A stretch of 64,000 nt of DNA from Candidatus Omnitrophota bacterium (GCA_903944345.1 CAJARJ010000018.1:45933-109932); one strand, 5' to 3'; shown: positions 18,955 to 64,000, counted from the stretch's first letter. Program-made: numbers and translations. Notes: generated by a model not told the origin, from the sequence alone.

Positions 18955-19992
18955 CTAAAGCCACCTTCTCTTGCGGAAATAGACGAGCATCCCCGCCGCC
19001 ACCGCCGACATCAACCCCAGTGCCCAGATGTAGCCAAAAGGCCAAAGCAATTCGGGCATGTTAAAAGGCGAAGCATGCGGGTTGAAATTCATTCCATAGA
19101 CTCCGGCAATAAAGGTCAGTGGCATAAAAATCGTGGCAATAATCGTGAGCACCTTCATAACCTCGTTGGTACGATAACTTACGGTAGAAAGATATATCTC
19201 CAGCATGCCCGAGGCGGTATCACGCAGCACCTCGATTTTGTCTGCCGCCTGGATAACATTATTATACAAATCTCGAAAATACACCTCCGTCGCCGGACGG
19301 ACGAGGACGGATTCACCCCGGGCCAGGGAATGCACGGCCTCGCGCAAAGGCCATACCGAACGGCGCAGGGTCAGAAAATCTTTCTTGAGGCGGCTCATCC
19401 GCTTGAGCAATCCCGGATCCGTCTTTTGAAAAAGCAGAGTATCCATGGCCTGTAAATCTTCACCGATCACATCAATTACGTCAAAATAACGCTCAACCAG
19501 CGCAGCCAAAAGAGCATGCAACAGATAATCTGCCCCCGCCTCGCGCAAACGCGCGTAGCCCGAACGCAGCCGCCGGCGGACCGGATCAAAGACATCTCCT
19601 TCCCTGCCTTCCTGGAAAGTGATCAGAAAATTATTACCCAATATAAAACTAACCTGCTCCTCCTGCAGACGGCTCTCTTTCCGGTCACGGGAAAGCATGC
19701 GGGCCAGCACAAAAACATGGCTGCCGTACTCAACCATGCGGGGGCGCTGATGCGCCTGGGTGATATCTTCCAGCATCAGGTGATGAACACCGTAAGCCTC
19801 TTCCAGACGGGCAAGAACATCGGGACAATCCAGCCCCTCCACATTGATCCAGGTGACTGTGGGCTTGTCGCGATAGGGGACACACTCCTCGACATCTTTG
19901 ACATCATGTTCACGCAAGGAGCTACCGTCATAATCCATAACGGTAATGCGAACAGGAGAGGCGGTTGTTTTTCGGGGTGGATGCGCGTTCAT
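18955..19992 (-). CDS. corA: Magnesium/cobalt transporter CorA
   Basis: Cytoplasmic domain plus two C-terminal TM helices with the YGMNF signature (AGVYGMNFNPHASPFNMPEL). Confidence 0.85.
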   Translation of the reverse strand: MNAHPPRKTTASPVRITVMDYDGSSLREHDVKDVEECVPYRDKPTVTWINVEGLDCPDVLARLEEAYGVHHLMLEDITQAHQRPRMVEYGSHVFVLARMLSRDRKESRLQEEQVSFILGNNFLITFQEGREGDVFDPVRRRLRSGYARLREAGADYLLHALLAALVERYFDVIDVIGEDLQAMDTLLFQKTDPGLLKRMSRLKKDFLTLRRSVWPLREAVHSLARGESVLVRPATEVYFRDLYNNVIQAADKIEVLRDTASGMLEIYLSTVSYRTNEVMKVLTIIATIFMPLTFIAGVYGMNFNPHASPFNMPELLWPFGYIWALGLMSAVAAGMLVYFRKRRWL

Positions 19993-20041
19993 GATGATTT
20001 GACTATAGCATTCCTGAACTCGTGGTCAAGCAAGGAAATGA

Positions 20042-20569
20042 CTAAGGATTTGTATGTCGATTGGAAGCAGCCGGGTCAAAACGCAACGCCGCTGAATTGA
20101 TGCAGAAACGGCGGCCTTCTGGAGCCGGGCCGTCTTCAAAAACATGCCCCAGGTGCCCGCCGCAAACCAGGCAATAGGCTTCCGTCCGGTGCATGCCGTG
20201 CGAGCGGTCTTCCCGCAACCCTATACTGCCTTCCGGTGCCGGGCGAAGGAAACTCGGCCACCCCGTACCGGAATCAAACTTGTCCTGCGACAAAAAGAGT
20301 GCCGTGCCGCAGGCCGCACAACGATAGACTCCGGGCTGGTGATGATCGGCATACACGCCGCTGAATGGCCGTTCCGTACCCCTTTCCCTCAGGACGCGGT
20401 ATTCCTCGGAAGAAAGCAGTTTCTTCCACTCATCCTCGGAACGCGACGCCGTCGGCCCCTTGGGCAAAGGACAAATTGCGTTTTGCACCACCCGGCTCTG
20501 TCCTGTCTTCATATCAGCACACCCCGCATAAAACAGCGTAACTATAACCAAAACAAAAACGGCATACAA
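20042..20569 (-). CDS. msrB: Peptide-methionine (R)-S-oxide reductase MsrB, probable lipoprotein
   Basis: HLGHVFEDGP and RRFCINSAALRF MsrB motifs with the two CxxC Zn-site pairs. N-terminal lipobox-like LFYAGCAD. Confidence 0.8.
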   Translation of the reverse strand: MYAVFVLVIVTLFYAGCADMKTGQSRVVQNAICPLPKGPTASRSEDEWKKLLSSEEYRVLRERGTERPFSGVYADHHQPGVYRCAACGTALFLSQDKFDSGTGWPSFLRPAPEGSIGLREDRSHGMHRTEAYCLVCGGHLGHVFEDGPAPEGRRFCINSAALRFDPAASNRHTNP

Positions 20570-20578
20570 TGCCCCCCA

Positions 20579-21589
20579 TCAGGAAGCGGAAGCCCCTCTG
20601 CCGACACTCTTCAGGCTGTGTCCGGCATCCTGGGCTATCGAGCGCCCCAGCGAAGCCACCATCCCGGAAATACACAAAGCACAATCTGCGGGCTTGTCCT
20701 GGATACATATTTTGCCCGGATAAAGCTGATAATGCTCCCGATAACGCGTCGGAGTGACATTCGGCATAAGAACATTGGCCCCGCAACGCAAAGCCCGCTG
20801 GCGACCCTGCTTGTCAATGGACCCCATGGCCGTCGTTGCCGGAATATGTGTGTTACGCGTGACCAGACGAATCAAGGCCACAGCTCTGAGTGTCATGTCC
20901 AGCGTACCACTGACCGCCCCCTCCAACGGAGTCTGGGGATTGGGAATAAACGGCCCGATCCCGATCATATCAAGATCCAGAATTTTCATCAACATAATGT
21001 CGTCGGCAATCATCTCCGGAGTCTGACCGGGCAACCCCACCATAATACCCGATCCAACCTGAAAGCCCAGTTCCTTGAGCCAGAGCAGACATTGCATCCG
21101 CTCGTCAAACGAAGAGTCTGGCTTCAGCTCGGCAAACAACCGGCTTGAGGAAGTTTCGAAACGCAACAGATACCGGTCGGCTCCCGCCGCCTTGAGGCTG
21201 GCGTATTCCTCGCGAGTTTTCTCACCAATCGAAAGGGTAATGGCCACCTTGAGCTCACGCTTTATGCGCTCCAACAGGCGACAAACATCTGCCACCGGAT
21301 AAGCGGAACTCTCTCCTGACTGCAGCACCAGGCTTTTATACCCGAGTCGCGCGGCATTGGCCGCAGTTTCGTAAATCTCGTCGATACTCATACTGTAACG
21401 TTCAACAGCACGGTTGCTGCGCCGCAATCCGCAATAAAAACAGTCTCTGCCGCAAACATTGGAGAATTCAATAAGGCCGCGCAAATGCACAGCATCCCCT
21501 ACCTGCTCGCGCCGGACACGATCAGCCTCGGCAAAAATATCCTGCACATCAGGCCTCGTCAGGCCGTCTACAATCTGTGCGTAGGTCAT
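20579..21589 (-). CDS. hydE: [FeFe]-hydrogenase maturase HydE (radical SAM, BioB-like)
   Basis: LRGLIEFSNVCGRDCFYCGLRRSN CX3CX2C motif and BioB-like fold, located in the hydG/hydF/hnd context. Confidence 0.8.
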   Translation of the reverse strand: MTYAQIVDGLTRPDVQDIFAEADRVRREQVGDAVHLRGLIEFSNVCGRDCFYCGLRRSNRAVERYSMSIDEIYETAANAARLGYKSLVLQSGESSAYPVADVCRLLERIKRELKVAITLSIGEKTREEYASLKAAGADRYLLRFETSSSRLFAELKPDSSFDERMQCLLWLKELGFQVGSGIMVGLPGQTPEMIADDIMLMKILDLDMIGIGPFIPNPQTPLEGAVSGTLDMTLRAVALIRLVTRNTHIPATTAMGSIDKQGRQRALRCGANVLMPNVTPTRYREHYQLYPGKICIQDKPADCALCISGMVASLGRSIAQDAGHSLKSVGRGASAS

Positions 21590-21594
21590 AGGCT

Positions 21595-21888
21595 TCAGGC
21601 ATCCCCCTTCCCCGCGTGTTTCTCGAATAGTTCCCGGATTTGCTCCCGGTCGATGTCTGATCCATTACCAGGATAGAACAACAAAGCCCACTCCGGGCTA
21701 AGAATAACTCTTTGCGGAGCATCAAACGATTCTTCCAGCGGCAAACGCCCCGCGGCATAAGACCAGCGCTGACCGGCAATACGCACCAGGTGCACCGGCC
21801 CGCCGGTCTCGGACTCAAGCATTGACTCCAATTGCTCAAAAGCCTGCATCATGTTGACATTCACATAACCTCCCTCGCCATCCGGCAT
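21595..21888 (-). CDS. Hypothetical 97-aa protein between hydG and hydE (uncertain)
   Basis: Non-overlapping ORF that exactly fills the hydG-hydE gap (ends 6 nt before the hydE start) with protein-like composition. No convincing RBS and no recognisable motif. Confidence 0.3.
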   Translation of the reverse strand: MPDGEGGYVNVNMMQAFEQLESMLESETGGPVHLVRIAGQRWSYAAGRLPLEESFDAPQRVILSPEWALLFYPGNGSDIDREQIRELFEKHAGKGDA

Positions 21889-21925
21889 TTTAATACCGGG
21901 GCGTATCCATTTGCATGCCCTTCGC

Positions 21926-23494
21926 TTACAAGTAAAGATCCCGCTCCCCTGTCTTGATTCTGCGGTGATAATCCATAAAAATATCCAGTGCCTTGGGATT
22001 CTTTTCCTTGATCTGGGCTATCTCTTTGTCGATCAAAGGCTCTCCGGCCTTACGGGCTTCTTCGCTGCCAAAATCATCCAGCCATTCCTGAAAAGTCAGT
22101 ACGGCGTTAAGTTTACAAAACTTTCCTTCGGTGCCGCTGCGCAAAAGATCCATAATACATTTTCCGGTGCGCCCGCAGCGATAGCCCGCCGTACAAAAAG
22201 AAGTAATATGCCCCATCCGGGCCAAATCACGGATAAGCTCATCCAGCGATCGGGTATCTCCAAGAATAAACTGCTGGCGGTCTTCCTTCTGAACTGTCAC
22301 CGCGTCCGTCGTCCCGCCGGAATAGGAACCGATCGCAATACGGCTTGAGGCGTCCATCTGGGTAATACCCATGCGAACGGCCTCATCACGGATATCGGCT
22401 CGTTCGCGGGCGGTAATGATCATGCCGGTATAAGGAACCGCCAGACGGATAATCAGCATGATTTTCTTGAAATCCTCGTCATTCACCAGATAAGGCCAGT
22501 CTGCGGGTATCGCAGAATTCAAGGCAGGCACCAGCCGAGGGAAAGAAATCGTATGGGCCCCGATACCCAGACGTTTTTCCAGCTCCTGGGTGTGATACAC
22601 CAGCGACATGAGTTCAAATCGCCAGTCGTAAAGACCGAAAAGCACTCCGATCCCGACATCATCGATCCCCGCCTCCAGAGCTCGATGCATGCAATACAGT
22701 CGCCAGTTATAATTGCCCTTGAGAGTCCCGGCAGGATGCATGCGCGCGTATGTTTCCTTATGGTAAGTTTCCTGGAACACCTGATAAGTTCCGATACCAG
22801 CTTCATTGATGCGGCGCAAGTCTTCCACACAGAACGGCGGCGCATTGACGTTAACCCGACGGATAGACCCGTGTCCATTCCGTGTCTTGACCCGGACGGA
22901 ATAAATTGTTTTCAGGCTCTCGATAATATAGTCCACATCATTCTTCGGGTGCTCCCCGTAAACCACAATCAGGCGTTTGTGACCGATCTCGCCAGCCAAA
23001 ACAGAGATTTCCCGGCGTATTTCATCAGGTGAAAGCACCTTGCGCTGCGCGTCGCAATTGTCGTTATTAAACCCGCAATAGGAACAGCGGTTCACGCAAT
23101 AATTTCCCAGATAGAACGGGGCAAAGGTCACGATCCGGTTATCGTAGATCTTGAGTTTGATCCTGAGAGCGGTATCCCGCATTTCTTCCAGCATCCCGGG
23201 ATCACGGACATTGATCAGAACCGCAACCTGCTCGGGAGACAGATCCTTGATTGCCATCGATTGAGCCAGGATTTCCCTGACCTGACGGGGATCCGGCTCT
23301 TTGGGCGCCTCCGCCAACTGGCGCTCGATCAGAACATCGTCAATGAAATCGCGTCCGTGATCCATATATTTGACAATCTCGTCATTCTTGATCCGGCGGC
23401 TCATCCAGGATGAGGTATTTGTCTCTTCCGTCAACATAGCTGTTCTCCTTTTCGGGAATCCGTATGGATCATCCCTTGTTAAGCTCTTGCTCAA
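21926..23494 (-). CDS. hydG: [FeFe]-hydrogenase maturase HydG (radical SAM tyrosine lyase, ThiH-like)
   Basis: NYCVNRCSYCGFN radical SAM motif plus a C-terminal auxiliary-cluster domain (SFCTAGYRCGRTGKC). 522 aa. Confidence 0.85.
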   Translation of the reverse strand: MSKSLTRDDPYGFPKRRTAMLTEETNTSSWMSRRIKNDEIVKYMDHGRDFIDDVLIERQLAEAPKEPDPRQVREILAQSMAIKDLSPEQVAVLINVRDPGMLEEMRDTALRIKLKIYDNRIVTFAPFYLGNYCVNRCSYCGFNNDNCDAQRKVLSPDEIRREISVLAGEIGHKRLIVVYGEHPKNDVDYIIESLKTIYSVRVKTRNGHGSIRRVNVNAPPFCVEDLRRINEAGIGTYQVFQETYHKETYARMHPAGTLKGNYNWRLYCMHRALEAGIDDVGIGVLFGLYDWRFELMSLVYHTQELEKRLGIGAHTISFPRLVPALNSAIPADWPYLVNDEDFKKIMLIIRLAVPYTGMIITARERADIRDEAVRMGITQMDASSRIAIGSYSGGTTDAVTVQKEDRQQFILGDTRSLDELIRDLARMGHITSFCTAGYRCGRTGKCIMDLLRSGTEGKFCKLNAVLTFQEWLDDFGSEEARKAGEPLIDKEIAQIKEKNPKALDIFMDYHRRIKTGERDLYL

Positions 23495-24716
23495 AAGCTT
23501 CCAGTGCCGCCGGAAATGGCGACAAAGCTCTCCTTAAAACTCCCTGCACCAGAGAAATTGCAACGCCGTAATTCGTTACCGGAACGCCCATCCCCCTGGC
23601 CTGCTGCAAACGAAAAAGTGTTTCGCCCCGCGTCAACATGCATGAACCGCAATGAATCACCAGCTTGTACCTGGCCAGATCCTGCGGATAATCCCGCCCG
23701 GCACAATGTTCGACCACAAGATCCCCTCCGACATGCTGACGCAGCCAGCGCGGAATCTTGACCCGTCCGATATCATCCTCAAGGGCATGATGCGAACAGC
23801 TTTCGGCCACCAGAACCCGGTCGCCGGGAACAAGCTTGTCAATCGCGGCCGCCCCGCGCGCCAGCTCAACCAGATCTCCCTTGAAGCGGGCAAAAAGAAC
23901 CGAGAACGTAGTGCACTTGACCTCCCGGGGCGTATCGGCGACAGTTTTCATAACCACCTGCGAATCGCAAACCACCAGATCAGGCGGGCGGCGTAAATTA
24001 GCCAGGCAAGCGGCATACTCGCGATCCTTGACCACAACAGCAACCGCGTCATTATCCAGTAAATCCCGGATGGCCTGGACCTGCGGCACAATAAGCCGGC
24101 CCTTGGGGGCTTCCAGGTCAATAGGAACCACCAGCACTACCGTTCCTCCCGCCGGAACCAGATCACCCAGCAATGAAAGCGGCTGGAGAAAATCCTGCGG
24201 ACAAACCTCCAGCAAATATGCTTTTAAACGATTTAACCAGACCTCTCTGTTTTCCCTGCGAATGCTCGACACCTCCACAACCCTCGGGGTCAAACCAGCA
24301 AGCCTGGCCATAAAAGCAGGCGAGGCAGGAGCAATATCCGTCTTGTTCACGATGACAATAAACGGCTTTTTCTTTTCCTGCAAAACGGCCAGCAACTCGT
24401 CCTCTGACGCACCCCACACCTCAGGCTCGACAACCACAAGCGAGATATCCGCACGGTTCATGGCCCTTCGGGCCCGCTCAATACGCCGATCGGCCAGCTC
24501 CGACACATCATCCAGTCCCGCCGTATCCAGAAAGACCACCGGCCCCAGAGGCGGCAGTTCCATGGTCTTTTCGACCACATCCGTGGTTGTGCCCGGAACG
24601 GGGGAGGTAATAGAAACATCCTGTCCGGCCAGCATATTAAGAAAACTGGACTTGCCGACATTCGCCCGGCCAAAAATGCCGATCTGTAAACGTAATGACT
24701 TAGGTTGCGCCTGCAT
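23469..24716 (-). CDS. hydF: [FeFe]-hydrogenase maturation GTPase HydF
   Basis: N-terminal GTPase (GIFGRANVGKSSFLN, DTAG, NKTD) and a C-terminal HydF cluster-binding domain (CxH...HC). Confidence 0.85.
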   Translation of the reverse strand: MQAQPKSLRLQIGIFGRANVGKSSFLNMLAGQDVSITSPVPGTTTDVVEKTMELPPLGPVVFLDTAGLDDVSELADRRIERARRAMNRADISLVVVEPEVWGASEDELLAVLQEKKKPFIVIVNKTDIAPASPAFMARLAGLTPRVVEVSSIRRENREVWLNRLKAYLLEVCPQDFLQPLSLLGDLVPAGGTVVLVVPIDLEAPKGRLIVPQVQAIRDLLDNDAVAVVVKDREYAACLANLRRPPDLVVCDSQVVMKTVADTPREVKCTTFSVLFARFKGDLVELARGAAAIDKLVPGDRVLVAESCSHHALEDDIGRVKIPRWLRQHVGGDLVVEHCAGRDYPQDLARYKLVIHCGSCMLTRGETLFRLQQARGMGVPVTNYGVAISLVQGVLRRALSPFPAALEAFEQELNKG

Positions 24717-24719
24717 TTT

Positions 24720-25340
24720 TTATTCTCCCTGATTACGGAAACCGGACAAATTGTTCCGGAACAGAAATCTGAAAACCATATACGACAAAGGCACGATCAC
24801 CGCCCAGGACAACAGAACGCTCGTTAGAAAATAACGCAAATACCCGCCGCCGGGATCATCCGCATCACAAGGAAAGAAGACGCAATTGACATTCTTGAAA
24901 GCCGGGGTCAGCAGAAACGTTCCGACCATAAGAACCGCCCCGCAGGCAACCGCCCAGACAAGCGAGCGGCGGTCAAAGCCAAGGCGTGTAACTCCCCAAA
25001 AGGAAACCGGAATAACAAAAGTATGAATCACCGCCGACCCCCAGTAAATCAGCGGGCCGCAAGGCTCCAGCATGGCAGTACGCCCCATCCCCCGTCCAAA
25101 AAATTCCAGCACAAAATCCAGGGCCCACAATGACTGGGCTGGAACCGAAAGAACCAGACAAACACTCAAAAACAAGGCCGAACGCCGGAACAATGCATAC
25201 GCGAGCAACAGCGTTATCAAGGGACAAAACCAGAAAACCTCCGTCCAATCCCCCCAGTTGGCAAAAATATCCATAATAACCAGAAATACGCTCAAGGCGG
25301 CCAGCCGCCGGAAAGATATGCCGGAAGAACGCTTTCTCAC
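24720..25340 (-). CDS. Polytopic membrane protein of unknown function (hyd cluster)
   Basis: 206 aa with 5-6 hydrophobic helices. Translationally coupled: 4-nt overlap with the aspartase-like gene and a 3-nt gap to hydF. Confidence 0.45.
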   Translation of the reverse strand: MRKRSSGISFRRLAALSVFLVIMDIFANWGDWTEVFWFCPLITLLLAYALFRRSALFLSVCLVLSVPAQSLWALDFVLEFFGRGMGRTAMLEPCGPLIYWGSAVIHTFVIPVSFWGVTRLGFDRRSLVWAVACGAVLMVGTFLLTPAFKNVNCVFFPCDADDPGGGYLRYFLTSVLLSWAVIVPLSYMVFRFLFRNNLSGFRNQGE

Positions 25341-26713
25341 TTTTTATACCCCAGAGCTGTCAGATTATGGGGAGCGAGCACCTTGTCAACCAGCTCACCG
25401 CCCAGACGTTCCGTCAGAAAAACCCTTAAATCCGCGCGCCCGCAGGAATCAAACTCTTTTAACAGATCCCTGGCTTTCTCGTAACCGATAGCCGGAACAA
25501 ACGCGGTTACAATCATCCGGCTCCGGTCGAAATATTCCCGGCACCCGGAAGCATTGGCCTCTATCTGATCCACATGACGGGCAAGAATACGGCTGGCATT
25601 GATCAAAAGCTCCAGTGAATCAAGCAGAGCCCCCGCCAGAAGCGGAAGAAATTCATTGATCTGGAAACTCCCCCGCGAAGCGCTTTCGGTAACAAGAAAG
25701 TCATTGGCCATGACCTGCAGTCCGGCCTGGATAACCGCCTCGGGAATGACCGGATTAACCTTACCCGGCATGATCGAGGAACCGGCCTGCAAAGCCGCAA
25801 GGCGCAACTCCCCCAAATAATTAAGGTGGCGCAAATCATTGCCTATTTTGACCAGATTGGATGCCAGCGCCTTGAGAATTCCGGACACTTCGACAAAAAC
25901 ATCTGCGTTAGCCGTTTCTCCGGCGGGAAGCTCTCCGCGCGACAAGCCAAACCCGGTCAGGGCACGCAATTTCTCGATAACCAGAAAAATATATTCACGC
26001 GGAGCACCCAGTCCGGTTCCGATAGCCGTCCCCCCAAGATTGACAACCCGAAGACGTTCCTCGCATTTGAACGTACGCCAGCGGTCTCTGGCAAACGCTT
26101 CTGCCCAGACCGCACATTCCAGCCCGAGTGTCATGGGCACGGCATCCTGCAACTCAGTCCTTCCAATCTTGACAATCGAAGCAAACTCATTTTCCTTGCG
26201 CTGGAATGCCCCCTGCAAAAGAGCGACCGACTCGCTCAACAGTCTTAACTGTCCAATGGCCGCAACCTTGAGCGCTGTCGGATAAACATCGTTCGTTGAC
26301 TGATGCAGATTGACATGTTCCAAAGGATGAATCCTGTCGTAAGCCCCGCGAGAAAAGCCAGAGAGCTCCAGTGCGCGGTTGGCCAGAACTTCGTTCATAT
26401 TCATATTCGTCGATGTGCCTGCGCCTCCCTGCAAAAGGTCAACCGGAAACTGATCGGCAAGCGCCCCTTCAGCCACTTCCCGGCAGGCGCCAACAATCAC
26501 CCCGGCCTTATCTGCAGGCAGAAAGCCCAGATCAGCATTAGCCTCGGCACAGGCCTGCTTGACCTGGGCCATTGCCATAATAAGCACCCGCGGCACCTTG
26601 CGGGCAGAAAGCGGAAAGTTCTCCAGCGCGCGCAGGGTATGAATTCCCCAATACACTTGCGCGGGGACATCCCGCTCTCCCAGCGAATCTTTTTCACGAC
26701 GAACAGAATCCAT
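25337..26713 (-). CDS. aspA: Aspartate ammonia-lyase (fumarate lyase superfamily) embedded in the hyd cluster
   Basis: GSSIMPGKVNP fumarate-lyase signature. N-terminus MDSVRREKDSLGERDVPAQVYWGIHTLRALENF resembles AspA. Confidence 0.75.
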   Translation of the reverse strand: MDSVRREKDSLGERDVPAQVYWGIHTLRALENFPLSARKVPRVLIMAMAQVKQACAEANADLGFLPADKAGVIVGACREVAEGALADQFPVDLLQGGAGTSTNMNMNEVLANRALELSGFSRGAYDRIHPLEHVNLHQSTNDVYPTALKVAAIGQLRLLSESVALLQGAFQRKENEFASIVKIGRTELQDAVPMTLGLECAVWAEAFARDRWRTFKCEERLRVVNLGGTAIGTGLGAPREYIFLVIEKLRALTGFGLSRGELPAGETANADVFVEVSGILKALASNLVKIGNDLRHLNYLGELRLAALQAGSSIMPGKVNPVIPEAVIQAGLQVMANDFLVTESASRGSFQINEFLPLLAGALLDSLELLINASRILARHVDQIEANASGCREYFDRSRMIVTAFVPAIGYEKARDLLKEFDSCGRADLRVFLTERLGGELVDKVLAPHNLTALGYKK

Positions 26714-26716
26714 CTC

Positions 26717-26965
26717 CTACTCCTTAGCCAACGCCGAACGGACCGTGACACTGTCCACCGCGCCCAATTTTCCGGTGAGAGCACCAAGCTGATCGGAAGT
26801 CATATCAACCGTCAGGGTGATCACCCAGCACTGGCGGTCACGATAAGGAAGTCCGACTCGGGCAATAATATCTTCGCCATAATCCATCAGGATACGGTTG
26901 ACGACCTGAGCCGACTTCTTGCGGTCTTCAATAATAATTCCAACAAAACCCAGCCGCTTGCTCAT
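26717..26965 (-). CDS. Putative iron-only hydrogenase system regulator (TM1266-like small ACT/NikR-C-like protein)
   Basis: 82 aa, VGIIIEDRKKSAQVVNRILMDYGEDIIARVGLPY...VITLTVDMTSDQLGALTGKLGAVDSV. Strong AAGGAGG RBS. Positioned between hndD and the aspA/hydF genes. Confidence 0.55.
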   Translation of the reverse strand: MSKRLGFVGIIIEDRKKSAQVVNRILMDYGEDIIARVGLPYRDRQCWVITLTVDMTSDQLGALTGKLGAVDSVTVRSALAKE

Positions 26966-26980
26966 TCATTCCTCCTTGTT

Positions 26981-27017
26981 AATAAAAAAACCCGTCCCGG
27001 CACAAAGCCGGGACGGG
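26981..27017 (-). terminator. Rho-independent terminator of the hndABCD operon
   Basis: CCCGTCCCGGC-acaaa-GCCGGGACGGG is a perfect 11-bp stem, followed on the minus strand by TTTTTTTT. Confidence 0.7.
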
Positions 27018-27096
27018 AATAATTGATCGCTCCCAATCCCTGACTTCAGGAACTTGCGTTCCCTGGCTGCGGGTTTTTGAAAACTATACCAGATCG

Positions 27097-28857
27097 TTAC
27101 TTGTTATACAAGGGCCGTGATACATACGTTGTGTGCAAAAGCTCATGCGCCTTATGACTCAACGGCTTCTCCAGAAAATCCTTGTACAACTGCTGTACAT
27201 ACGGATTGTGATGCGAACAACGCACCGTCATAGCCGAATCTTCGTCATAAAGCCCCTTGGCGCGCTGCTGACGGATTTCATCGGTCACCATGTAAGGCTG
27301 TCCGCCGCCGCCCACACACCCGCCGGGGCAAGCCATAACTTCAATAAAGTGATACGGCACAGGCTGTTTCTTCTCGATCGCCTCGCGCACCTTGTTCATG
27401 ACATGCTTGACATTGGCCAGGCCATGCGCCACCGCAATCTTGACCTCGGTTCCCTTGATATTGACCGTCGTCTCCTTGACCCCCTCCAAACCGCGCACAG
27501 CGTAGAAATTAACATCCGCCAGATCTTCTCCGGTCACATTAAAGTAAGCCGTACGCAGAGCCGCTTCCATAACACCTCCGGTTGCGCCGAAAATTGTTCC
27601 GGCACCGGCATAATCACCCAGAATCGAATCCGCCTCTTCATCGGGCAAAGAGTTAAAATCGATGCCGGCGTGTTTGAGCATACGGATCAATTCGCGGGTG
27701 GTCAAAGATATATCCACATCCTGGTATCCGGAAGCGAACATATCCTTTGTGCGGCCAATCTCATACTTCTTGGCGGTACAAGGCATGACCGAAACAACAA
27801 CTATTTTGGAAGGATCTATATTCTGCTTGCCGGCATAGTAGGTCTTGGCCAGAACGCCAACCATTTCGTGAGGGCTCTTGGCAGAAGAAAAATGCTGGAT
27901 CATGTCGCCATAATACTTTTCAAGATAATCCACCCAGGCCGGACAGCAACTGGTAATAAGAGGCAATGCCCCCTTGCCATGGGCAAAGCGCTCCACAAAT
28001 TCGCCGGCTTCTTCAAGAATGGTCAAATCCGCACCGAAGTTGGTATCAAAAACCGCCTTGAACCCCAGGCGACGGAAGGCAGCATAAAGCTTTCTGGTCA
28101 GATTTGTTCCGACCGGATAACCAAAACCCTCCCCGACCGCCACACGAACCGCAGGCGCGACCTGAACCACCACAACCTTCTCCGGGTCCTGCAATGCATC
28201 CCATACCTTGCGGGTATCATCATGCTCAAAAATCGCACCTGTCGGACAATGCGCCGAGCACTGCCCGCAACGCACACAGGGAGAATCCGCCAGCTTGATG
28301 TCGCCGGCAGGAGCCATGCGCGTATTAAAACCGCGATCCATGAAAGAAAGAGCCCAAACATCCTGTACGTTCTGGCAAGCATCAATACAACGCCCGCACT
28401 TGATACATTTTTTGGGTTCCAGAATAAGGGTTCCGGTCGACTTGTCTGCCGGAATTTCCGGGACAATACGCTCAAAACGATCTTCACGAATACCAAATTC
28501 GGCGGCCAGTTTCTGCAATTCGCAATCATTGTTGCGTCCACAAATCAGGCAGTCCGTAGGGTGATTGGATAAAATCAGCTCCAGAACAGTCAGACGGGTC
28601 TGGACGATCTCGGAATCATGAGTGGTGACTTCCATCTTGTCTTCCAGGGGCGTACAACAGGCCCGCAGGAGTTTACGATTCCCCTTGACCTTGACAATGC
28701 AGATGCCACAGCCCGCCGAAGCAGTCAAATCGGGATGCTTGCATAAGGTCGGAATCTTGACCTGCACCAGCTTGGCGGCTTCCAGGATGGTTGTTCCATA
28801 AGCAACTTCCACCGGCTTGCCGTTAATGAGCGCTTTAACCATAGTAACGGTAGACAT
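27097..28857 (-). CDS. hndD: [FeFe] hydrogenase catalytic subunit (HndD/HydA; NuoG-like N-terminus + H-cluster domain)
   Basis: N-terminal 2Fe-2S and 4Fe-4S Cys motifs. H-cluster signatures TSCCPAWV, MPCTAKKYE and EVMACPGGCVGGGGQP. Start refined to 28857 (MSTVTMVKALINGKPVEV). Confidence 0.9.
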   Translation of the reverse strand: MSTVTMVKALINGKPVEVAYGTTILEAAKLVQVKIPTLCKHPDLTASAGCGICIVKVKGNRKLLRACCTPLEDKMEVTTHDSEIVQTRLTVLELILSNHPTDCLICGRNNDCELQKLAAEFGIREDRFERIVPEIPADKSTGTLILEPKKCIKCGRCIDACQNVQDVWALSFMDRGFNTRMAPAGDIKLADSPCVRCGQCSAHCPTGAIFEHDDTRKVWDALQDPEKVVVVQVAPAVRVAVGEGFGYPVGTNLTRKLYAAFRRLGFKAVFDTNFGADLTILEEAGEFVERFAHGKGALPLITSCCPAWVDYLEKYYGDMIQHFSSAKSPHEMVGVLAKTYYAGKQNIDPSKIVVVSVMPCTAKKYEIGRTKDMFASGYQDVDISLTTRELIRMLKHAGIDFNSLPDEEADSILGDYAGAGTIFGATGGVMEAALRTAYFNVTGEDLADVNFYAVRGLEGVKETTVNIKGTEVKIAVAHGLANVKHVMNKVREAIEKKQPVPYHFIEVMACPGGCVGGGGQPYMVTDEIRQQRAKGLYDEDSAMTVRCSHHNPYVQQLYKDFLEKPLSHKAHELLHTTYVSRPLYNK

Positions 28858-28870
28858 GAATAGCTCCTTG

Positions 28871-30604
28871 TTATTGACGAGAAACTGCAGTGAACTTGCA
28901 AACGTCAAAGCACTGCCCGCAGCTGATACACTTTACGGCATCGATCGTATACTTGTCCTGCCGGCTTCCGGAAATCGCATCCGCCGGGCAAACCCGGGCG
29001 CACATGCCACAGCCGGTGCATTTCTCCCGGGTGATCCGGTAAGAAACCAGGCTGGAACACTTGCCCGCAGGGCACTTGTGATCGATAACGTGCGCGCGAT
29101 ATTCGGACATGAAATACTTCAACGTCGACAAAACAGGATTGGGAGCTGTCTGCCCCAACCCGCACAAGGATGCTTTCTGCATGGCCTGGGCGATCTGTGA
29201 AAGACGGGCGAGATCCTCTTCCTCCGCCTTGCCGTGAGAAATCTTTTTAAGAATAGCCAGCATCTGGGTGCCTCCCACGCGGCAAGGAGCGCATTTCCCG
29301 CAAGACTCATCCACACAGAAGCCAAGATAAAACTTGGAAATATCCACCGCGCAATCGTTCTCGTCGAGTACAATCATGCCGCCGGAGCCCATGATAGACC
29401 CCAGTTTCTGGAGGCTTTCATAGCCCACCGGCGTGTCAAAAAACTGTTCAGGAATAACGCCGCCAGAAGGCCCCCCGGTTTGTATGGCCTTGATGGCGCG
29501 ATTGTCCAGAACCCCGCCGCCGATCTCGAACACGATGTCCCTTAAAGAAATGCCCATCGGAACCTCAACCAGGCCGGAATTGCGTACCTTGCCGGTCAGC
29601 GCGAAAACCTTGGTCCCGGTCGAACCCTCTACCCCGATCTTTCCGAAAGCTTCCCCGCCCTTGCAAAGAATATAGGAAACATTCGCCAGAGTCTCGACGT
29701 TGTTGATAACCGTCGGATTGCCCCACAATCCCTTGACCGAGGGAAAAGGCGGACGCGGACGCGGATAACCCCGTAAACCCTCGACGGAAGCAATAAGGGC
29801 CGTTTCTTCTCCGCACACAAAAGCGCCGGCTCCCAGACGGATTTCAATGTCAAAACTGAAAGAAGAGCCGAGGATATTTTTCCCCAGCAGTCCCCTGGAA
29901 TAACAAATATCAATCCCCTTCTGGATGCGCTCGACAGCCAGAGGATATTCGGCACGAATGTAGAAAAAACCCTTGGTGGCACCGATCGCAATCGCCCCGA
30001 TCATCATGCCTTCGATAACAGAATGCGGATCCCCTTCAAGAACCGAACGGTCCATGTATGCCCCGGGGTCGCCTTCGTCACCGTTACAGATGATGTATTT
30101 CTCGTTCCCCTGGACACCCCGGGTGATGTTCCACTTCATCCAGGTCGGGAAGCCCGCGCCACCACGTCCGCGTAAACCCGACTTCTTCATTTCCTCAACA
30201 ACTTTCTCCGGCCCCAATTCAAGCGCCCGGGCCAGCCCCTGATAGCCGTCATGGGCTATGTAATCTTCAAGGCTCTCCGGATCTATAACACCGCAATTGC
30301 GCAAAACAATTCGCATTTGACCAACGGAACCCTCACGGGCGATACCAGCGACTTGCTCGCCCTTAAGCAGGGTTTTCTCAATAATCTCGGGAATATGCTT
30401 CTGTTCAAGATTGACGTAAGTAAACCCTTCCGGCAAAACCTTGAGCGCTATCCCGCGGTTGTAAACCCCGATATCCGCCGCCATAAGCGTCTGAACTTCA
30501 GAGGACAACCCGCGATCACGCAGCTGACTGTTTAAGGACACCAGAAATTCCCGGGTCTCTTTCTTCAATTTTCCGTTTGTGTCCTGAATAAGAACTCTTT
30601 TCAT
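28871..30604 (-). CDS. hndC: NAD(P)-binding flavoprotein subunit of the hydrogenase (HndC/HydB, NuoF-like with extra Fe-S domains)
   Basis: GLRGRGGAGFPTWMKW FMN/NADH site, NuoF 4Fe-4S motif, and C-terminal 2x[4Fe-4S] ferredoxin CxxCxxCxxxCP motifs. Confidence 0.9.
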   Translation of the reverse strand: MKRVLIQDTNGKLKKETREFLVSLNSQLRDRGLSSEVQTLMAADIGVYNRGIALKVLPEGFTYVNLEQKHIPEIIEKTLLKGEQVAGIAREGSVGQMRIVLRNCGVIDPESLEDYIAHDGYQGLARALELGPEKVVEEMKKSGLRGRGGAGFPTWMKWNITRGVQGNEKYIICNGDEGDPGAYMDRSVLEGDPHSVIEGMMIGAIAIGATKGFFYIRAEYPLAVERIQKGIDICYSRGLLGKNILGSSFSFDIEIRLGAGAFVCGEETALIASVEGLRGYPRPRPPFPSVKGLWGNPTVINNVETLANVSYILCKGGEAFGKIGVEGSTGTKVFALTGKVRNSGLVEVPMGISLRDIVFEIGGGVLDNRAIKAIQTGGPSGGVIPEQFFDTPVGYESLQKLGSIMGSGGMIVLDENDCAVDISKFYLGFCVDESCGKCAPCRVGGTQMLAILKKISHGKAEEEDLARLSQIAQAMQKASLCGLGQTAPNPVLSTLKYFMSEYRAHVIDHKCPAGKCSSLVSYRITREKCTGCGMCARVCPADAISGSRQDKYTIDAVKCISCGQCFDVCKFTAVSRQ

Positions 30605-30659
30605 GCCCTTGTCCCCTGGTTGTGATTAAAGGTGCCACCTCGCGGATGTTCCGCGGGTT

Positions 30660-31001
30660 TCAGATCTCGTAAATATGCCCTTCGACCAGTCTTTTCTGAC
30701 ACACATGCTCGTCCATGATCTTGTGCGCGACATCCTTGTTGACCTTGCCGTAAATCACTCTGGGCGCACCCTCAACACTGACTTCAACCAGCGGTTCGGC
30801 AGAACACAACCCCAAACATCCGCATTTCTTGACCTGAAGTTCCAGCCCACGGGCCTTGACCTCGCCGGAGAGGACTTCAAGCACTTCCTTGGCGCCGGCC
30901 GCAATCCCGCAGGTAGAATACCCCACGCGGATCCAGTTCTTCGGCTGGCCAGCCAACGTCTTGTTCTTGATCGCCAAAAGGTCTTCTTTCGTCATCGCCA
31001 T
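30660..31001 (-). CDS. hndB: Small thioredoxin-like [2Fe-2S] ferredoxin subunit (HndB-like)
   Basis: 113 aa with Cys at STCGIAAGA and KKCGCLGLCSAEP, the Trx-like 2Fe-2S ferredoxin pattern. Confidence 0.7.
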   Translation of the reverse strand: MAMTKEDLLAIKNKTLAGQPKNWIRVGYSTCGIAAGAKEVLEVLSGEVKARGLELQVKKCGCLGLCSAEPLVEVSVEGAPRVIYGKVNKDVAHKIMDEHVCQKRLVEGHIYEI

Positions 31002-31010
31002 GCCGCCCCC

Positions 31011-31496
31011 TTATCCGTTCTTGACGGAGTCTTTGGAATATTCCGCAATAATATCCATCACATCACTGCGCTTGACCGCGCTGTAAACCTTGTCGCCGAC
31101 GGTAATGACCGGAGCGAGGCCGCAGCAACCCAGGCAGCGGACAATCTGCAAATGGAAGAAGCCATCTTTGGTTGTCTGCCCTTCCTCGACATGCAAAATC
31201 CCGCGGATTTCATCAATAAGCGCTGGCGCTCCCTTAAGATAGCAAGCCGTCCCCAGGCACACCGAGATATTAAACTTGCCCGGGGGCTGAAGCTTGAAAT
31301 AATTATAAAAAGTAAGAACTTCGTAGATACGCGCCAGGGGCGCATCCATCTGCCGGGACACTTCCAGCGCCGCTTCACGGGGCACATAACCGTAACGGTC
31401 CTGAATGTCATGAAGAATCGTAATAAGATTCCCCCGCCTGTCCTTCCATCTGTCTACGACGGACTTGACATCTGCACTGAGCGTCTCGATGATCAT
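31011..31496 (-). CDS. hndA: NuoE-like [2Fe-2S] subunit of the hydrogenase (HndA/HydC)
   Basis: CLGTACYLKGAP...RCLGCCGLAPV NuoE 2Fe-2S motifs. Start refined to ATG 31496 (MIIETLSADV...), which has an AGGAGA RBS. The ORF track extends to 31661. Confidence 0.8.
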   Translation of the reverse strand: MIIETLSADVKSVVDRWKDRRGNLITILHDIQDRYGYVPREAALEVSRQMDAPLARIYEVLTFYNYFKLQPPGKFNISVCLGTACYLKGAPALIDEIRGILHVEEGQTTKDGFFHLQIVRCLGCCGLAPVITVGDKVYSAVKRSDVMDIIAEYSKDSVKNG

Positions 31497-31690
31497 ACAC
31501 GTCTCCTGTGTTTGTTTGAAAAGCCGGATCGGCGCGCACGGCTGTCTTGCCTGATGAGGAAACTGCCGGAAATATTTTCTGATTATAAAGATGATCGAAT
31601 GCGCTGGCAAGGGAATTGTTCTCATTCCGCTGTCACTCCGAAAGCAAGAAAAACATAACACATGCGAATGCGTTTTGATAAGATAAGATC

Positions 31691-33112
31691 ATGTTTTTCC
31701 GCATCTGCACTTTAATGCTCACCGGTCTGCTCATATACAGGATCATTCTACCTGTACCCTCCGCCGACCTTCCCCTGACGGGCGAAGCGAACACGGTCGT
31801 TTTCCAGGCCGACGGCTATGGCGGCCCGATCAGGATGCAAATGGTGCTGACCAATACAGGGAGCATCCAGCAGCTGCAAGTCCTCACCCACCAGGAAACA
31901 GCCGCTTTTGTCACACAACTGGATACTTTTCTGGCACAGTTCAGACAGAAAACCGGAATCGACGACCAGGAACCGGGCAGGGAGATTGATGTCATGACCG
32001 GGGCGACCGTCACCAGCCGCGCGATCACCCAGGCCGTTGCAGCAACCTTGCATCAACAGCCCGCCCGTAAAGACCCCCTTCCCCTTCTGCCATTGCTCCT
32101 GTCCGCAACACTCGGTCTGTCCGCACTGGCCGCATTGCTTCTTGGCAACCGGATTCTTCGCGGCCTGGTTCTACTCTCTGCTCTGTTTCTCTTCGGCCTG
32201 GCCCACCGCAGCATATTCTCCATTCTACAGATAGCCGGAATACAAACGGGACATGCACCTGCTCTTTTTGCTGCCCCCTGGTGGTGGATTTCCTTTGTCC
32301 TGGCACTCGTGCCTGCGCTGATCCTGGGGCGGCTTTACTGTTCTTCCTTATGCCCTTTTGCTGCCATTCAGGAGCTCCTGGCCAAAATCCAGAGAATACC
32401 CAGAAAACAGTTTACACCTGCTGCAGAGACCGACCGCAGAGCAAGAAAAATCAAATACCTGGTCCTGCTTGCTTTACTAACGCTGACTCTTGTTCTGGGC
32501 CATCTCTCAGTTGCCGATATCGAGCCCTACATCACATTTTTCACAGGCCGGGGCACATGGCCTGTCTGGAGCCTGCTAATTCTGGTGCTTGCGGCAGGAA
32601 CGTTCTTTTTTCGTTTCTGGTGCCGATATCTTTGTCCGGCAGGCGCTTTCATAGGTCTGGTCGCCCGTTTTGCCCGCTGGAAAATACAGTCGACTCCGGC
32701 CTGCACCGGCTGCCATGTCTGCCTTGCCGCCTGCCCGGTTAACGCGCTGGAAGCTGAAGGTTCTTTTGTCCAGGCAGAAACGGCCGAATGTATTCTGTGC
32801 GGGCATTGTCTAAAAATCTGCCCGCAGAAATGCCTACACCTCACGGCAACTCAAGCCAGACCGGCTTCAGGAACCCAAAAGCAGCGTAGGGCTGTTCCCT
32901 CCCCAGTCGCCCCTGAACAAACCTGGCTCTTGCCTGTTTTTCTGCTTCTCTCCGTGCTTCTGCTAACGCTTGGCGTGATGTACAATATTTACCAGTCCAC
33001 ATCAACAGCGGCCACAGCCGAATCCGCGACTCCGGATAAAAGCGAACACCTGAAGAAAGAATTGCTGGATATGGGATTAACCCTGCATCCAGCGAAATAC
33101 TGGAAACCATGA
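31691..33112 (+). CDS. FMN-binding domain-containing membrane polyferredoxin (NosR/NapH-like)
   Basis: N-terminal FMN_bind motif (DVMTGATVTSRAITQAV), about 6 TM helices with cytoplasmic CSSLCPF / CRYLCPAG motifs, and a C-terminal 2x4Fe-4S (CTGCHVCLAACP, CILCGHCLKICP). Confidence 0.6.
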   Translation: MFFRICTLMLTGLLIYRIILPVPSADLPLTGEANTVVFQADGYGGPIRMQMVLTNTGSIQQLQVLTHQETAAFVTQLDTFLAQFRQKTGIDDQEPGREIDVMTGATVTSRAITQAVAATLHQQPARKDPLPLLPLLLSATLGLSALAALLLGNRILRGLVLLSALFLFGLAHRSIFSILQIAGIQTGHAPALFAAPWWWISFVLALVPALILGRLYCSSLCPFAAIQELLAKIQRIPRKQFTPAAETDRRARKIKYLVLLALLTLTLVLGHLSVADIEPYITFFTGRGTWPVWSLLILVLAAGTFFFRFWCRYLCPAGAFIGLVARFARWKIQSTPACTGCHVCLAACPVNALEAEGSFVQAETAECILCGHCLKICPQKCLHLTATQARPASGTQKQRRAVPSPVAPEQTWLLPVFLLLSVLLLTLGVMYNIYQSTSTAATAESATPDKSEHLKKELLDMGLTLHPAKYWKP

Positions 33113-34080
33113 AGACAGTCGAATGCCTGCTTTGTCCACGCCACTGCCGCCTGCCCGAGGGCGGTCGAGGTGACTGCCTGGTTCGCACCAATGTCGGCGG
33201 CAAGCTCTATTCCCTGGTTTACGCAAAACCATGCTCAGTGCATGTAGATCCTGTTGAGAAAAAGCCTTTCTTCCATGTCCTGCCCGGATCCTCGGCTTTT
33301 TCGCTGGCCACTGCCGGCTGCAATCTGCACTGCCTGTTCTGCCAGAACTGGCAGATCTCGCAAAGCCAGCCGGAAAAAACACAGAACATTGACCTGCCAC
33401 CCCAGGCTGCAGTCGACAATGCCCTGCGCCATAACTGCCGCAGCATCGCTTATACCTATTCAGATCCGGTCATTTTCTATGAATACACCCTGGACACCGC
33501 GCGACTGGCCCAGAACGCCGGACTGCTGAACCTGCTGGTTACGGCAGCCTACATCGAGCAGGCACCTTTAGCCGAACTCTGCACGGTCACCCAAGCCGCG
33601 AATGTCGACCTTAAAGGAATCACCGAAGCCTTCTATAAAAAAATGTGCCGGGCCTCCCTGCGCCCCGTTCTGGATGCTCTTGTAACTATGAAGAAACTCG
33701 GAGTCTGGCTGGAAGTTACCAATCTGGTCATCCCGACGTGCAATGACAGTGACGAAGATTTGCGCACGCTGGCGCGCTGGATAAAAAATAATTGCGGGGC
33801 GGATACTCCGCTGCATTTTTCCCGATTCTGGCCCATGCATCAACTGATGCATCTGCCGCCCACTCCGGAAGAAACCCTGACCCGGGCCAGACAAATTGCC
33901 CAAAGCGAGGGGCTGCACTTTGTGTACACCGGGAACATTGCCGGACACCCCGGGGAGAACACCTTCTGCCCTGTATGCAAAAAAGAACTCGTACAGCGTA
34001 AAAGATACACCTTAGGAGAGATTCACCTTGCTTCGGGGGCCTGCGCGTTCTGCGGGCACCGCATCCCCGGCATCTGGTGA
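33109..34080 (+). CDS. AmmeMemoRadiSam-system-type radical SAM enzyme (PFL-activase-related)
   Basis: N-terminal CLLCPRHCRL Cys cluster, then ATAGCNLHCLFCQNW (CX3CX2C), with the conserved architecture of the AmrS family. No AMMECR1 or MEMO1 gene is adjacent. Confidence 0.7.
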   Translation: MKTVECLLCPRHCRLPEGGRGDCLVRTNVGGKLYSLVYAKPCSVHVDPVEKKPFFHVLPGSSAFSLATAGCNLHCLFCQNWQISQSQPEKTQNIDLPPQAAVDNALRHNCRSIAYTYSDPVIFYEYTLDTARLAQNAGLLNLLVTAAYIEQAPLAELCTVTQAANVDLKGITEAFYKKMCRASLRPVLDALVTMKKLGVWLEVTNLVIPTCNDSDEDLRTLARWIKNNCGADTPLHFSRFWPMHQLMHLPPTPEETLTRARQIAQSEGLHFVYTGNIAGHPGENTFCPVCKKELVQRKRYTLGEIHLASGACAFCGHRIPGIW

Positions 34081-34189
34081 CAGAAAGGACTCATGACACG
34101 TCGCAACTTTATAAAGACTTTACTGTTAATCAGCATTGGCTGGGTTCTTCGGCTGCGGCGACCTGCTGAAGACTTTTCGGCAGACTTGC

Positions 34190-39079: not shown

Positions 39080-39435
39080 TCGTCAAAGCCCCTGGACATC
39101 ACACTAACCTCTGCTTTACGGGCCAAAAGCCCCTGCTTAAGAAAATCAATCGCCCTCTCGGGAAACATGGTTCCGCAGGTCAAAACATCAAAAGCCGCAT
39201 AACCGTCCTGGGGCCATGTATGAATAGAGAAATGTGATTCAGCAATAAAAATCATCGCACTGACACCCTGCGGCTCAAACTGATGGAAATGGGATCCAAG
39301 AATAGTGGCGCCGCTGTCACGGGCGGCCTGCAGAAAAAGAGGACGCAAAACTTCAACCCTGGCCAGGGGCTCCGGATCACAACCGGTAAACTCGACAAGA
39401 TAGTGTCTGCCAAATTCATGTTTTCTGGATTTCAT
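39076..39435 (-). CDS. speH: S-adenosylmethionine decarboxylase proenzyme, class 1b (SpeH)
   Basis: 119 aa with the FIAESHFSIHTWPQDGYAAFDVLTCG self-processing site (ES/H). Confidence 0.8.
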   Translation of the reverse strand: MKSRKHEFGRHYLVEFTGCDPEPLARVEVLRPLFLQAARDSGATILGSHFHQFEPQGVSAMIFIAESHFSIHTWPQDGYAAFDVLTCGTMFPERAIDFLKQGLLARKAEVSVMSRGFDE

Positions 39436-51188: not shown

Positions 51189-51369
51189 TAAACCCCTTTG
51201 TTCAAGATTAAAACAAGCTGCCTGATTTTACCTCACATGCTCGGGCTTGACCACGCATTTCCCCGGAAATATCCCTCAAGACAACAAGTTTCAAACAAAA
51301 CTTCAACACAACGTTCTTTCATGATATTCTCGGACTTATTACTAACAACCAAATCAAAATCAAGCCGCC

Positions 51370-63926: not shown

Positions 63927-64000
63927 ACATCCCCCCCTCTATTATGAAAACCCCGCATCTCGATGGCAAAAGATGTCATTCCGAAACAAAAAAAAGAGGC

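Follow-up and report, generated by a model that had tools for sequence, protein, structure and literature searches.

An 11-kb [FeFe] hydrogenase locus from Candidatus Omnitrophota joins HndABCD genes to a lineage-specific variant of the maturation operon

Introduction

Multimeric [FeFe] hydrogenases of the HndABCD/HydABC type are described from Solidesulfovibrio (Desulfovibrio) fructosivorans (HndABCD) and from Acetobacterium woodii and Thermoanaerobacter kivui (HydABC(D), group A3 bifurcating), and clusters of the maturase genes hydE, hydG and hydF with aspA and the gene for TM1266 are described from Thermotoga, clostridia and other anaerobes (PMC11736057). Here we analyse a locus in which both are combined. 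It spans positions 20,579 to 31,496 of a 64,000 nucleotide long stretch of DNA from a Candidatus Omnitrophota bacterium (GCA_903944345.1, CAJARJ010000018.1:45933-109932), in the following referred to as the window. The locus is of a known kind, and its maturation operon is a lineage-specific variant. In contrast to the described enzymes, the hydrogenase comes from an uncultured member of the Omnitrophota, is known from its genes alone and has these genes placed directly upstream of a complete maturation operon that belongs to it.

Apart from HydE, HydF and HydG, biosynthesis of the H-cluster is regarded as needing just the housekeeping H and T proteins as well as an ammonium source. HydG makes an Fe(CO)2(CN)-cysteine synthon out of tyrosine, HydE processes this synthon, and HydF serves as scaffold for the [2Fe] subcluster. 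Pagnier et al. (2024, Journal of Biological Chemistry; PMC11736057) found an ammonia-lyase gene in the vicinity of 79% of those hydF genes that are authentic, with aspA typically located beside hydF. In the same study, Escherichia coli AspA and aspartate delivered the bridgehead nitrogen of the dithiomethylamine (DTMA) ligand in a defined in vitro maturation, as seen by 15N electron nuclear double resonance (ENDOR); the nitrogen takes a route via ammonium and then the H and T proteins of the glycine cleavage system (PMC11736057).

Results

The Locus Consists of a Hydrogenase Unit and a Maturation Unit

The eleven genes are located on the minus strand in two co-oriented units (Table 1). The first unit, hndA-B-C-D, ends at a terminator. 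The second is a seven-gene maturation unit with the order TM1266-like gene, aspA-like gene, a membrane protein gene of 206 codons (206-aa gene), hydF, hydG, a gene of 89 codons (89-aa gene) and hydE, and its genes are tightly spaced or overlap. Curated family cut-offs were exceeded by HndD, HydE, HydF, HydG and the TM1266-like protein, and by the AspA-like protein at the level of the aspartase subfamily. An earlier reading of the window, made from its sequence (the original prediction), had listed genes and operon layout; every gene in it proved to be present at its position on the minus strand, including the small membrane protein, and the curated models agree with the assignments. Its claim of a full HydE/G/F set is borne out by TIGR03956, TIGR03955 and TIGR03918, the cut-offs of which were all passed. 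The inventory was incomplete in one respect, since it had missed the 89-aa open reading frame (ORF) between hydG and hydE.

The order of all eleven genes is identical in 10 independent related loci from metagenomes and metagenome-assembled genomes (MAGs; L001-L010), the accessory proteins of which are 42-88% identical to those of the window. Two additional Omnitrophota loci (L011, L012) show the same order except that the membrane protein gene is missing, and the four-gene order hndABCD is kept in 12 related loci. The named relatives of the locus proteins are Candidatus Omnitrophota MAGs.

Compared to the clusters described previously (PMC11736057), HydE, HydG, HydF and TM1266 are shared, aspA is likewise located upstream of hydF, and the same logic of ammonium supply for DTMA would be applicable. 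New in the Omnitrophota locus are the 89-aa gene between hydG and hydE, the 206-aa gene between aspA and hydF and a HydG with a CX5CX19C instead of a CX2CX22C motif; in addition, its AspA has no SGPRxG loop.

Hyd-Linked Aspartases Behave as a Separate Clade

The original prediction had stated that aspartase-like genes associate with hyd clusters. To determine the linkage, one genome per GTDB species was scanned with the AspA-like protein of the window, which yielded 80 loci, and these loci were searched with all eleven window proteins using tblastn. In all 23 loci with an AspA-like protein of at least 48% identity, hydF, hydE and/or hydG are located at a distance of 7 kb or less, while none of the 57 loci with an identity of 49% or lower is hyd-linked. 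The association thus withstood a test in which absent linkage would have spoken against it: the close relatives are linked without exception and the distant ones are not. The linked loci include Omnitrophota, Syntrophales, Desulfofervidaceae, Planctomycetales, Verrucomicrobiota and Cloacimonadales as well as Syntrophorhabdaceae, Desulfoscipio/Desulfotomaculum, Negativicutes, Desulfovibrionaceae, Sulfurospirillum and Desulfonauticus; the unlinked ones belong to Bifidobacterium, Helicobacter, Rhizobium and Asgard archaea or contain fumarase-like sequences. In most linked loci aspA is found immediately upstream of hydF. Because of this split, the hyd-linked aspartases can be seen as an orthologous clade of their own, which accompanies hydF.

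The AspA-like lyase of this clade would release ammonium from aspartate, and the ammonium would, via the H and T proteins of the glycine cleavage system, become the bridgehead nitrogen of the DTMA ligand. The role of the aspartase had been called unresolved in the original prediction, which is outdated, as both the supply of the bridgehead nitrogen in vitro and the aspA-hydF linkage have been published (PMC11736057). The gene might alternatively encode an ordinary housekeeping aspartase that serves fumarate supply or amino-acid balance, with an accidental position next to the hyd genes or a loose co-regulation with them. We regard this as very unlikely. The protein does pass the cut-off of the NCBIfam aspartate ammonia-lyase subfamily with every catalytic motif kept, the JGI and NCBI annotations name it plainly aspartate ammonia-lyase, and a use of the fumarate from aspartase in anaerobic respiration has itself been raised in the study on nitrogen supply (PMC11736057). 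A housekeeping function is, however, difficult to reconcile with a linkage that divides completely across many phyla, with the position of aspA directly upstream of hydF in most loci and with a loop deletion that is specific to the clade.

The Aspartase-Like Protein Keeps the Catalytic Motifs and Has Lost a Loop

The AspA-like protein has the fumarate-lyase fold, an SS loop of the GSSxMPxKxN type and the aspartase signatures GTSTNMN, QSTND and GRTxxQDA. In the window the motifs are intact and read GTSTNMN, QSTND, GRTELQDAVP and GSSIMPGKVNPV; the third motif follows the pattern GRT[EQ]xQ[DE]AVP. The cut-off of the aspA equivalog TIGR00839 was not reached (437 vs 681 bits). In the window as well as in L001-L019, the SGPRxG loop just ahead of the mobile SS loop is removed by a 5-residue deletion (at approximately residues 297-300). 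Of the 57 non-hyd relatives, 55 have an intact loop and two have it in altered form (SSDSRAG in L051 and ASGPRCA in L083), and the Cloacimonadales loci L031 and L034 have a deletion of 4 residues at the same site. The position of His188 in AspB, which is Gln in the E. coli enzyme, is occupied by Glu. The original prediction of a bona fide aspartate ammonia-lyase therefore stands with regard to the catalytic signatures and the subfamily cut-off and falls short with regard to the equivalog and the missing loop; that the hyd-clade protein is a bona fide aspartase is plausible from its sequence.

The missed equivalog cut-off, the deleted loop and the Glu residue would also fit a protein that is not an aspartase in vivo. 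Its substrate or direction could be different, for instance with another amino-dicarboxylate or an adduct of an H-cluster precursor as substrate, or it could channel ammonia directly to HydF. All residues known from the structures of AspB and AspA to bind aspartate or to take part in catalysis are conserved, though (within GTSTNMN, QSTND, GRTx and GSSIMPGKVNPV), and half of the hyd-linked clade (L020-L033) retains the SGPRxG loop, so that hyd linkage does not depend on its loss. We thus consider such an altered lyase quite unlikely and retain the aspartase as the preferred assignment.

Another ammonium-handling enzyme is encoded nearby. The ORF at 60762-63938 (-) is 1,059 codons long, its Glu/Leu/Phe/Val dehydrogenase domains are confined to the C-terminal half, and it resembles the large NAD-specific glutamate dehydrogenases.

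HndABCD Resembles the Bifurcating Hydrogenases

The catalytic subunit HndD contains the domains Fer2_4, NADH-G_4Fe-4S_3, Fer4, Fe_hyd_lg_C (PF02906, 4.5e-94) and Fe_hyd_SSU (PF02256, 9e-27). Using the patterns TSCCPxW (L1), MPCxxKxxE (L2) and ExMACxxGCxxGGGQP (L3), the three H-cluster motifs were found in the translation as TSCCPAW, MPCTAKKYE and EVMACPGGCVGGGGQP. With these motifs and the two Fe_hyd domains HndD is a group A catalytic subunit. HndA has a length of 160-161 amino acids in all homologous loci. The best PDB matches of HndB are the N-terminal 2Fe-2S domains of NuoF/HydB/HoxF-type subunits (E 7e-15; 9bov_B, 8oh5_B), and a gene of 113 codons is found at the hndB position in every locus examined there. 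HndC (nuoF_fam, 459 bits) carries an additional 2Fe-2S domain at the N-terminus and a 2x[4Fe-4S] domain at the C-terminus, and fdxn_Clost spans its residues 14-86. A NuoE-like subunit, a NuoF-like subunit with extra Fe-S domains and a thioredoxin-like fourth subunit together make up the multimeric HndABCD/HydABC type, so that the tetrameric enzyme of the original prediction is recovered in the Pfam architectures of subunits A-D as well as in the three H-cluster motifs quoted there. The order A-B-C-D, the subunit sizes and the domain set (NuoE-like, thioredoxin-like, NuoF-like with extra Fe-S domains, M3 catalytic with three H-cluster motifs) are alike in the S. fructosivorans, A. woodii and T. 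kivui enzymes.

The product of the first unit would be a cytoplasmic, flavin-containing multimeric [FeFe] hydrogenase, a class of enzymes that couples H2 with NAD(P)H and ferredoxin through electron bifurcation or confurcation. Among solved structures, HndD is nearest to bifurcating HydA1 in the entries 7q4v (E 4e-176) and 8a6t. A simple NAD(P)-linked hydrogenase that does not bifurcate is an unlikely alternative, to which two points lend some weight: NF040763, the best NCBIfam model, is entitled "NADH-dependent [FeFe] hydrogenase, group A6", and the Hnd enzyme of D. fructosovorans was NADP-reducing in its first description. The nearest solved relatives are in contrast bifurcating HydABC-type enzymes, and both extra domains of HndC, the N-terminal 2Fe-2S and the C-terminal 2x[4Fe-4S], are typical of bifurcating HydB. 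A bifurcating-type enzyme is consequently the assignment that we prefer.

HydG Has a Variant Auxiliary-Cluster Motif

HydG aligns over the full length (E 1.6e-132) with the proteins from Thermoanaerobacter italicus (4WCX) and Carboxydothermus hydrogenoformans (4RTB). The N-terminal radical SAM motif CX3CX2C is present as CVNRCSYC, and the overall C-terminal domain as well as the first and last auxiliary Cys are retained, the latter two still 26 residues apart. The auxiliary motif itself differs: residues ~414-441 read CTAGYRCGRTGKC...C, which corresponds to CX5CX5CX13C and not to the canonical CX2CX22C. In the alignment to 4wcx and 4rtb, the resulting layout C-TAGYR-C-GRTGK-C-X13-C has Gly in place of the canonical second Cys (CTACYR to CTAGYRC) and new Cys residues at +6, three residues after the lost one, and at +12.

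The same variant is carried by 15 loci, namely L001-L012, two from more distant Omnitrophota (L016, L017) and one from Planctomycetales (L015); all 15 share the Cys at +6 with the window. In 11 further hyd-linked loci, HydG retains CTACYR or a CX2C form close to it. Because of the conservation in 15 related loci, CX5CX19C looks like a conserved functional variant and not like decay. No description of it was found in the literature, in a search that was uninformative. We also considered whether the 89-aa gene, the variant motif of HydG and the deletion in AspA are obligately found together, which is ruled out by mixed loci: L013 and L018 have the AspA deletion together with a canonical HydG, and in L015-L017 the 89-aa gene is not adjacent to the variant hydG.

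In the public record the window HydG is labelled "2-iminoacetate synthase" (the name of ThiH), despite passing the HydG equivalog. This misnaming is an annotation error, as a result of which a search by keyword would miss the maturase set.

HydE, HydF and the TM1266-Like Protein

In HydE the radical SAM motif CX3CX2C is present as CGRDCFYC. HydF contains the P-loop GRANVGKSS and the cluster motif CSHH...HCGSC, and PF18128 and PF18133 match. The gene msrB (SelR domain, 20042-20569 (-)) starts 9 nt past the hydE stop codon and may share a transcript with the maturation genes; it also follows hydE in L001-L003 and L009 and is not found there in the remaining related loci.

Both in the window and in L001-L012, the maturation unit begins with the TM1266-like gene. 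The original prediction of a TM1266-family ACT-like protein agrees with TIGR03959, the cut-off of which was passed, and with the PDB match to TM1266 of Thermotoga maritima (2nzc, E 5e-15). As it had also remarked, the family is functionally uncharacterised; a literature search returned mentions in genome annotations only. The protein probably senses a small metabolite and would tune the maturation module.

A Conserved 89-aa Protein Is Encoded between hydG and hydE

The 89-aa protein has no Pfam or NCBIfam matches, even at E values up to 0.1-10. A profile search of 5.8 billion proteins yielded 26 homologues, all of them unnamed or from Omnitrophota, and in each of the 12 contexts available the gene is flanked by hydG and hydE. 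Comparison with the L001 gene revealed 28 synonymous and 4 non-synonymous codon differences, which indicates strong purifying selection. An AlphaFold model obtained from the database homologues shows an alpha-beta4-alpha sandwich (predicted local distance difference test score, pLDDT, 79). The predicted fold may be GAF/Roadblock-like, with Roadblock/LC7-MglB and GAF/IclR-effector domains as structural neighbours. Outside of the Omnitrophota, an ORF located directly after hydG in a Desulfonauticus MAG (L033, 6681-6998 (+)) gave a weak hidden Markov model (HMM) match to the family (E 0.0015); it shares the core G-x-R-x-x-[FY]-x-AG and may be a remote homologue. A metagenome scan with the family alignment returned a single, uninformative contig of 1.2 kb. 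Neither the 89-aa nor the 206-aa gene has a paralogue elsewhere in the window.

Because of its position and its restriction to it, a maturation-linked role is the best guess for the 89-aa protein, which is likely a maturation accessory. It could take part in the hand-off of the synthon from HydG to HydE or modulate HydF.

The 206-aa Membrane Protein Belongs to a Wider Family

Like the 89-aa protein, the 206-aa protein has no match in Pfam or NCBIfam at E values up to 0.1-10, and a profile search of its family against the PDB gave chance matches only (E 0.38 or higher). In 10 of 12 contexts (L001-L010) the gene is flanked by aspA and hydF, and its start and stop overlaps with both neighbours persist down to 42% identity. 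With 56 synonymous and 24 non-synonymous codon differences it is under purifying selection, weaker than that on its neighbours. The model (pLDDT 76.5) has six predicted helices, and according to the positive-inside rule both termini are predicted to be inside. TMEM164, a human membrane acyltransferase with a Cys thioester (9LW1), is a structural neighbour with 9% identity and seven instead of six helices; it shows no Pfam (PF14808) or HMM relation to the 206-aa protein and was not recovered by Foldseek.

A word-indexed search found nine close homologues, which are hyd-linked wherever the context was examined, and an exhaustive profile search extended the family to 411 cluster representatives. 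The core conserved over 122 representatives (W37, C39, Q69, W72, D75, G86, H106, P111, N150, N152, C153 and C158) would be compatible with a site for metal binding or catalysis close to the outer face. The distant relatives, annotated as "hypothetical proteins" in DPANN archaea and elsewhere, are not located near hyd genes; in three of four contexts they directly follow a gene for a Spermine_synth membrane protein of ~540 amino acids, with or without DUF2617. This hints at an ancestral functional pairing with Spermine_synth that is unrelated to hydrogenase. We had considered the 206-aa protein as hyd-specific and downgraded this in view of these non-hyd contexts. We conclude that it belongs to an uncharacterised membrane family, a member of which one Omnitrophota clade has taken up into its maturation operon. 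The protein may have a role in maturation, with a lower likelihood than the 89-aa protein. The window contains three genes for Spermine_synth membrane proteins, at 34190-36331 (-), 37253-39082 (-) and 49656-51227 (-).

Both proteins could be passengers with no role in maturation, to which we give not quite an even chance, with the membrane protein as the more probable passenger. Its family is broad (411 representatives) and in distant members such as those of DPANN archaea adjoins Spermine_synth genes, which the window itself contains in three copies, instead of hyd genes; it is absent from L011 and L012 without any other change in gene order, and it is less constrained than its neighbours. 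Such a reading is less well compatible with the overlaps with aspA and hydF being kept down to 42% identity. It also does not account for an 89-aa gene that is found solely between hydG and hydE (12 of 12 contexts, 26 homologues), that has 28 synonymous against 4 non-synonymous differences and that has a weak remote match directly after hydG in the Desulfonauticus genome. The opposite assignment would make the 89-aa protein a fourth dedicated maturation factor, either an adaptor that passes the synthon from the variant HydG to HydE or a modulator of the HydF GTPase, and the 206-aa protein another accessory, specific to the lineage (it might supply metal or substrate, for example, by analogy to HupE/UreJ in [NiFe] hydrogenase gene clusters). 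In this specific form it is a tentative proposal that we consider possible and rather doubtful.

Transcription Signals and Neighbouring Genes

A sigma-70-like promoter candidate, identified by its match to the consensus, is located 86 nt upstream of the hndA ATG. The terminator after hndD, which had been described as clean, is indeed strong, with a G-C-rich stem and a T7 tail. An Rfam scan of positions 19000-35000 found no RNA families and thus no detectable riboswitch or leader.

Divergent from hndA, a NapH/NosR-like FMN-binding polyferredoxin membrane protein (31691-33112 (+)) and a radical SAM enzyme of the AmmeMemoRadiSam system (33109-34080 (+); TIGR04337, 383 bits) are encoded. In L001-L007 the pair is likewise found upstream of hndA, while L008 and L009 begin with partial copies of the polyferredoxin gene.

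Table 1. Features of the hydrogenase and maturation units. Coordinates refer to the window; aa, amino acids; where two scores are compared, the second is the cut-off of the model.
Feature	Coordinates	Strand	Basis
Sigma-70-like promoter candidate, hndA upstream	31582..31610	-	TTGCCA-17-TATAAT, 11/12 consensus, consensus match only
hndA, NuoE-like [2Fe-2S] subunit, 161 aa	31011..31496	-	PF01257, E 2.3e-45; NuoE/HoxE models
hndB, small thioredoxin-like [2Fe-2S] subunit, 113 aa	30660..31001	-	PF01257 weak, E 3.5e-4
hndC, NuoF-like FMN/NAD(P)H subunit, 577 aa	28871..30604	-	Complex1_51K 1.6e-43, NADH_4Fe-4S 1.1e-31, SLBB, Fer4 x2
hndD, catalytic [FeFe] hydrogenase subunit, 586 aa, M3-type	27097..28857	-	NF040763 813.7 vs 765
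Intrinsic terminator, hndD/maturation operon boundary	26991..27017	-	11-bp stem, 10 G-C pairs, 5-nt loop, TTTTTTT tail
TM1266-family ACT-like protein, 82 aa, putative regulator	26717..26965	-	TIGR03959 90.7 vs 60.8; PF21699 3.4e-27
Hyd-linked aspartate ammonia-lyase-like gene (aspA-like), 458 aa	25337..26713	-	NF008909 546 vs 510
Six-helix membrane protein (predicted), 206 aa	24720..25340	-	GTG start overlaps aspA stop
hydF, H-cluster scaffold GTPase, 415 aa	23469..24716	-	TIGR03918 512.3 vs 325.6; MMR_HSR1, HydF_dimer, HydF_tetramer
hydG, radical SAM tyrosine lyase, 503 aa	21926..23437	-	TIGR03955 457.5 vs 312
Conserved 89-aa protein	21595..21864	-	GTG start, GGAGG ribosome-binding site
hydE, radical SAM maturase, 336 aa	20579..21589	-	TIGR03956 358.6 vs 254.6

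Discussion

We regard it as probable, with good confidence, that the locus encodes a bifurcating-type HndABCD hydrogenase together with a self-contained H-cluster operon, in which a hyd-clade AspA would supply ammonium and the TM1266-like protein would act as a sensor. Several points weigh against this reading. Bifurcation is drawn from the closest solved relatives (7q4v, 8a6t) and is not readable from the sequence itself. The role of the hyd-clade AspA as ammonium donor would follow from in vitro work with the housekeeping AspA of E. coli, and no glycine-cleavage H or T genes were seen among the window ORFs in a non-exhaustive scan. Since the AspA-like protein fails the equivalog cut-off and has no SGPRxG loop, its substrate or kinetics may differ. 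HydG departs from CX2CX22C, and it is an assumption that its auxiliary cluster functions normally. The interval between the terminator and the TM1266-like gene yielded no promoter-like site.

The locus supports the recent ammonia-lyase model of nitrogen supply to the H-cluster, and it points to the hyd-linked clade, rather than to E. coli AspA, as the protein relevant to this model. What is added here is the separation of the hyd-linked aspartases as a clade, the variant motif in HydG and two conserved, unannotated genes in the maturation operon. Should these extras be irrelevant, the locus would be an ordinary, well-annotated hydrogenase operon. A natural HydG with a relocated auxiliary-cluster Cys bears on the construction of the dangler-iron site, and a tiny conserved protein is encoded exactly between HydG and HydE, where the hand-off of the synthon would occur. 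The 11-kb locus is a compact cassette that is complete in itself, and heterologous expression of this cassette from an uncultured phylum would be possible.

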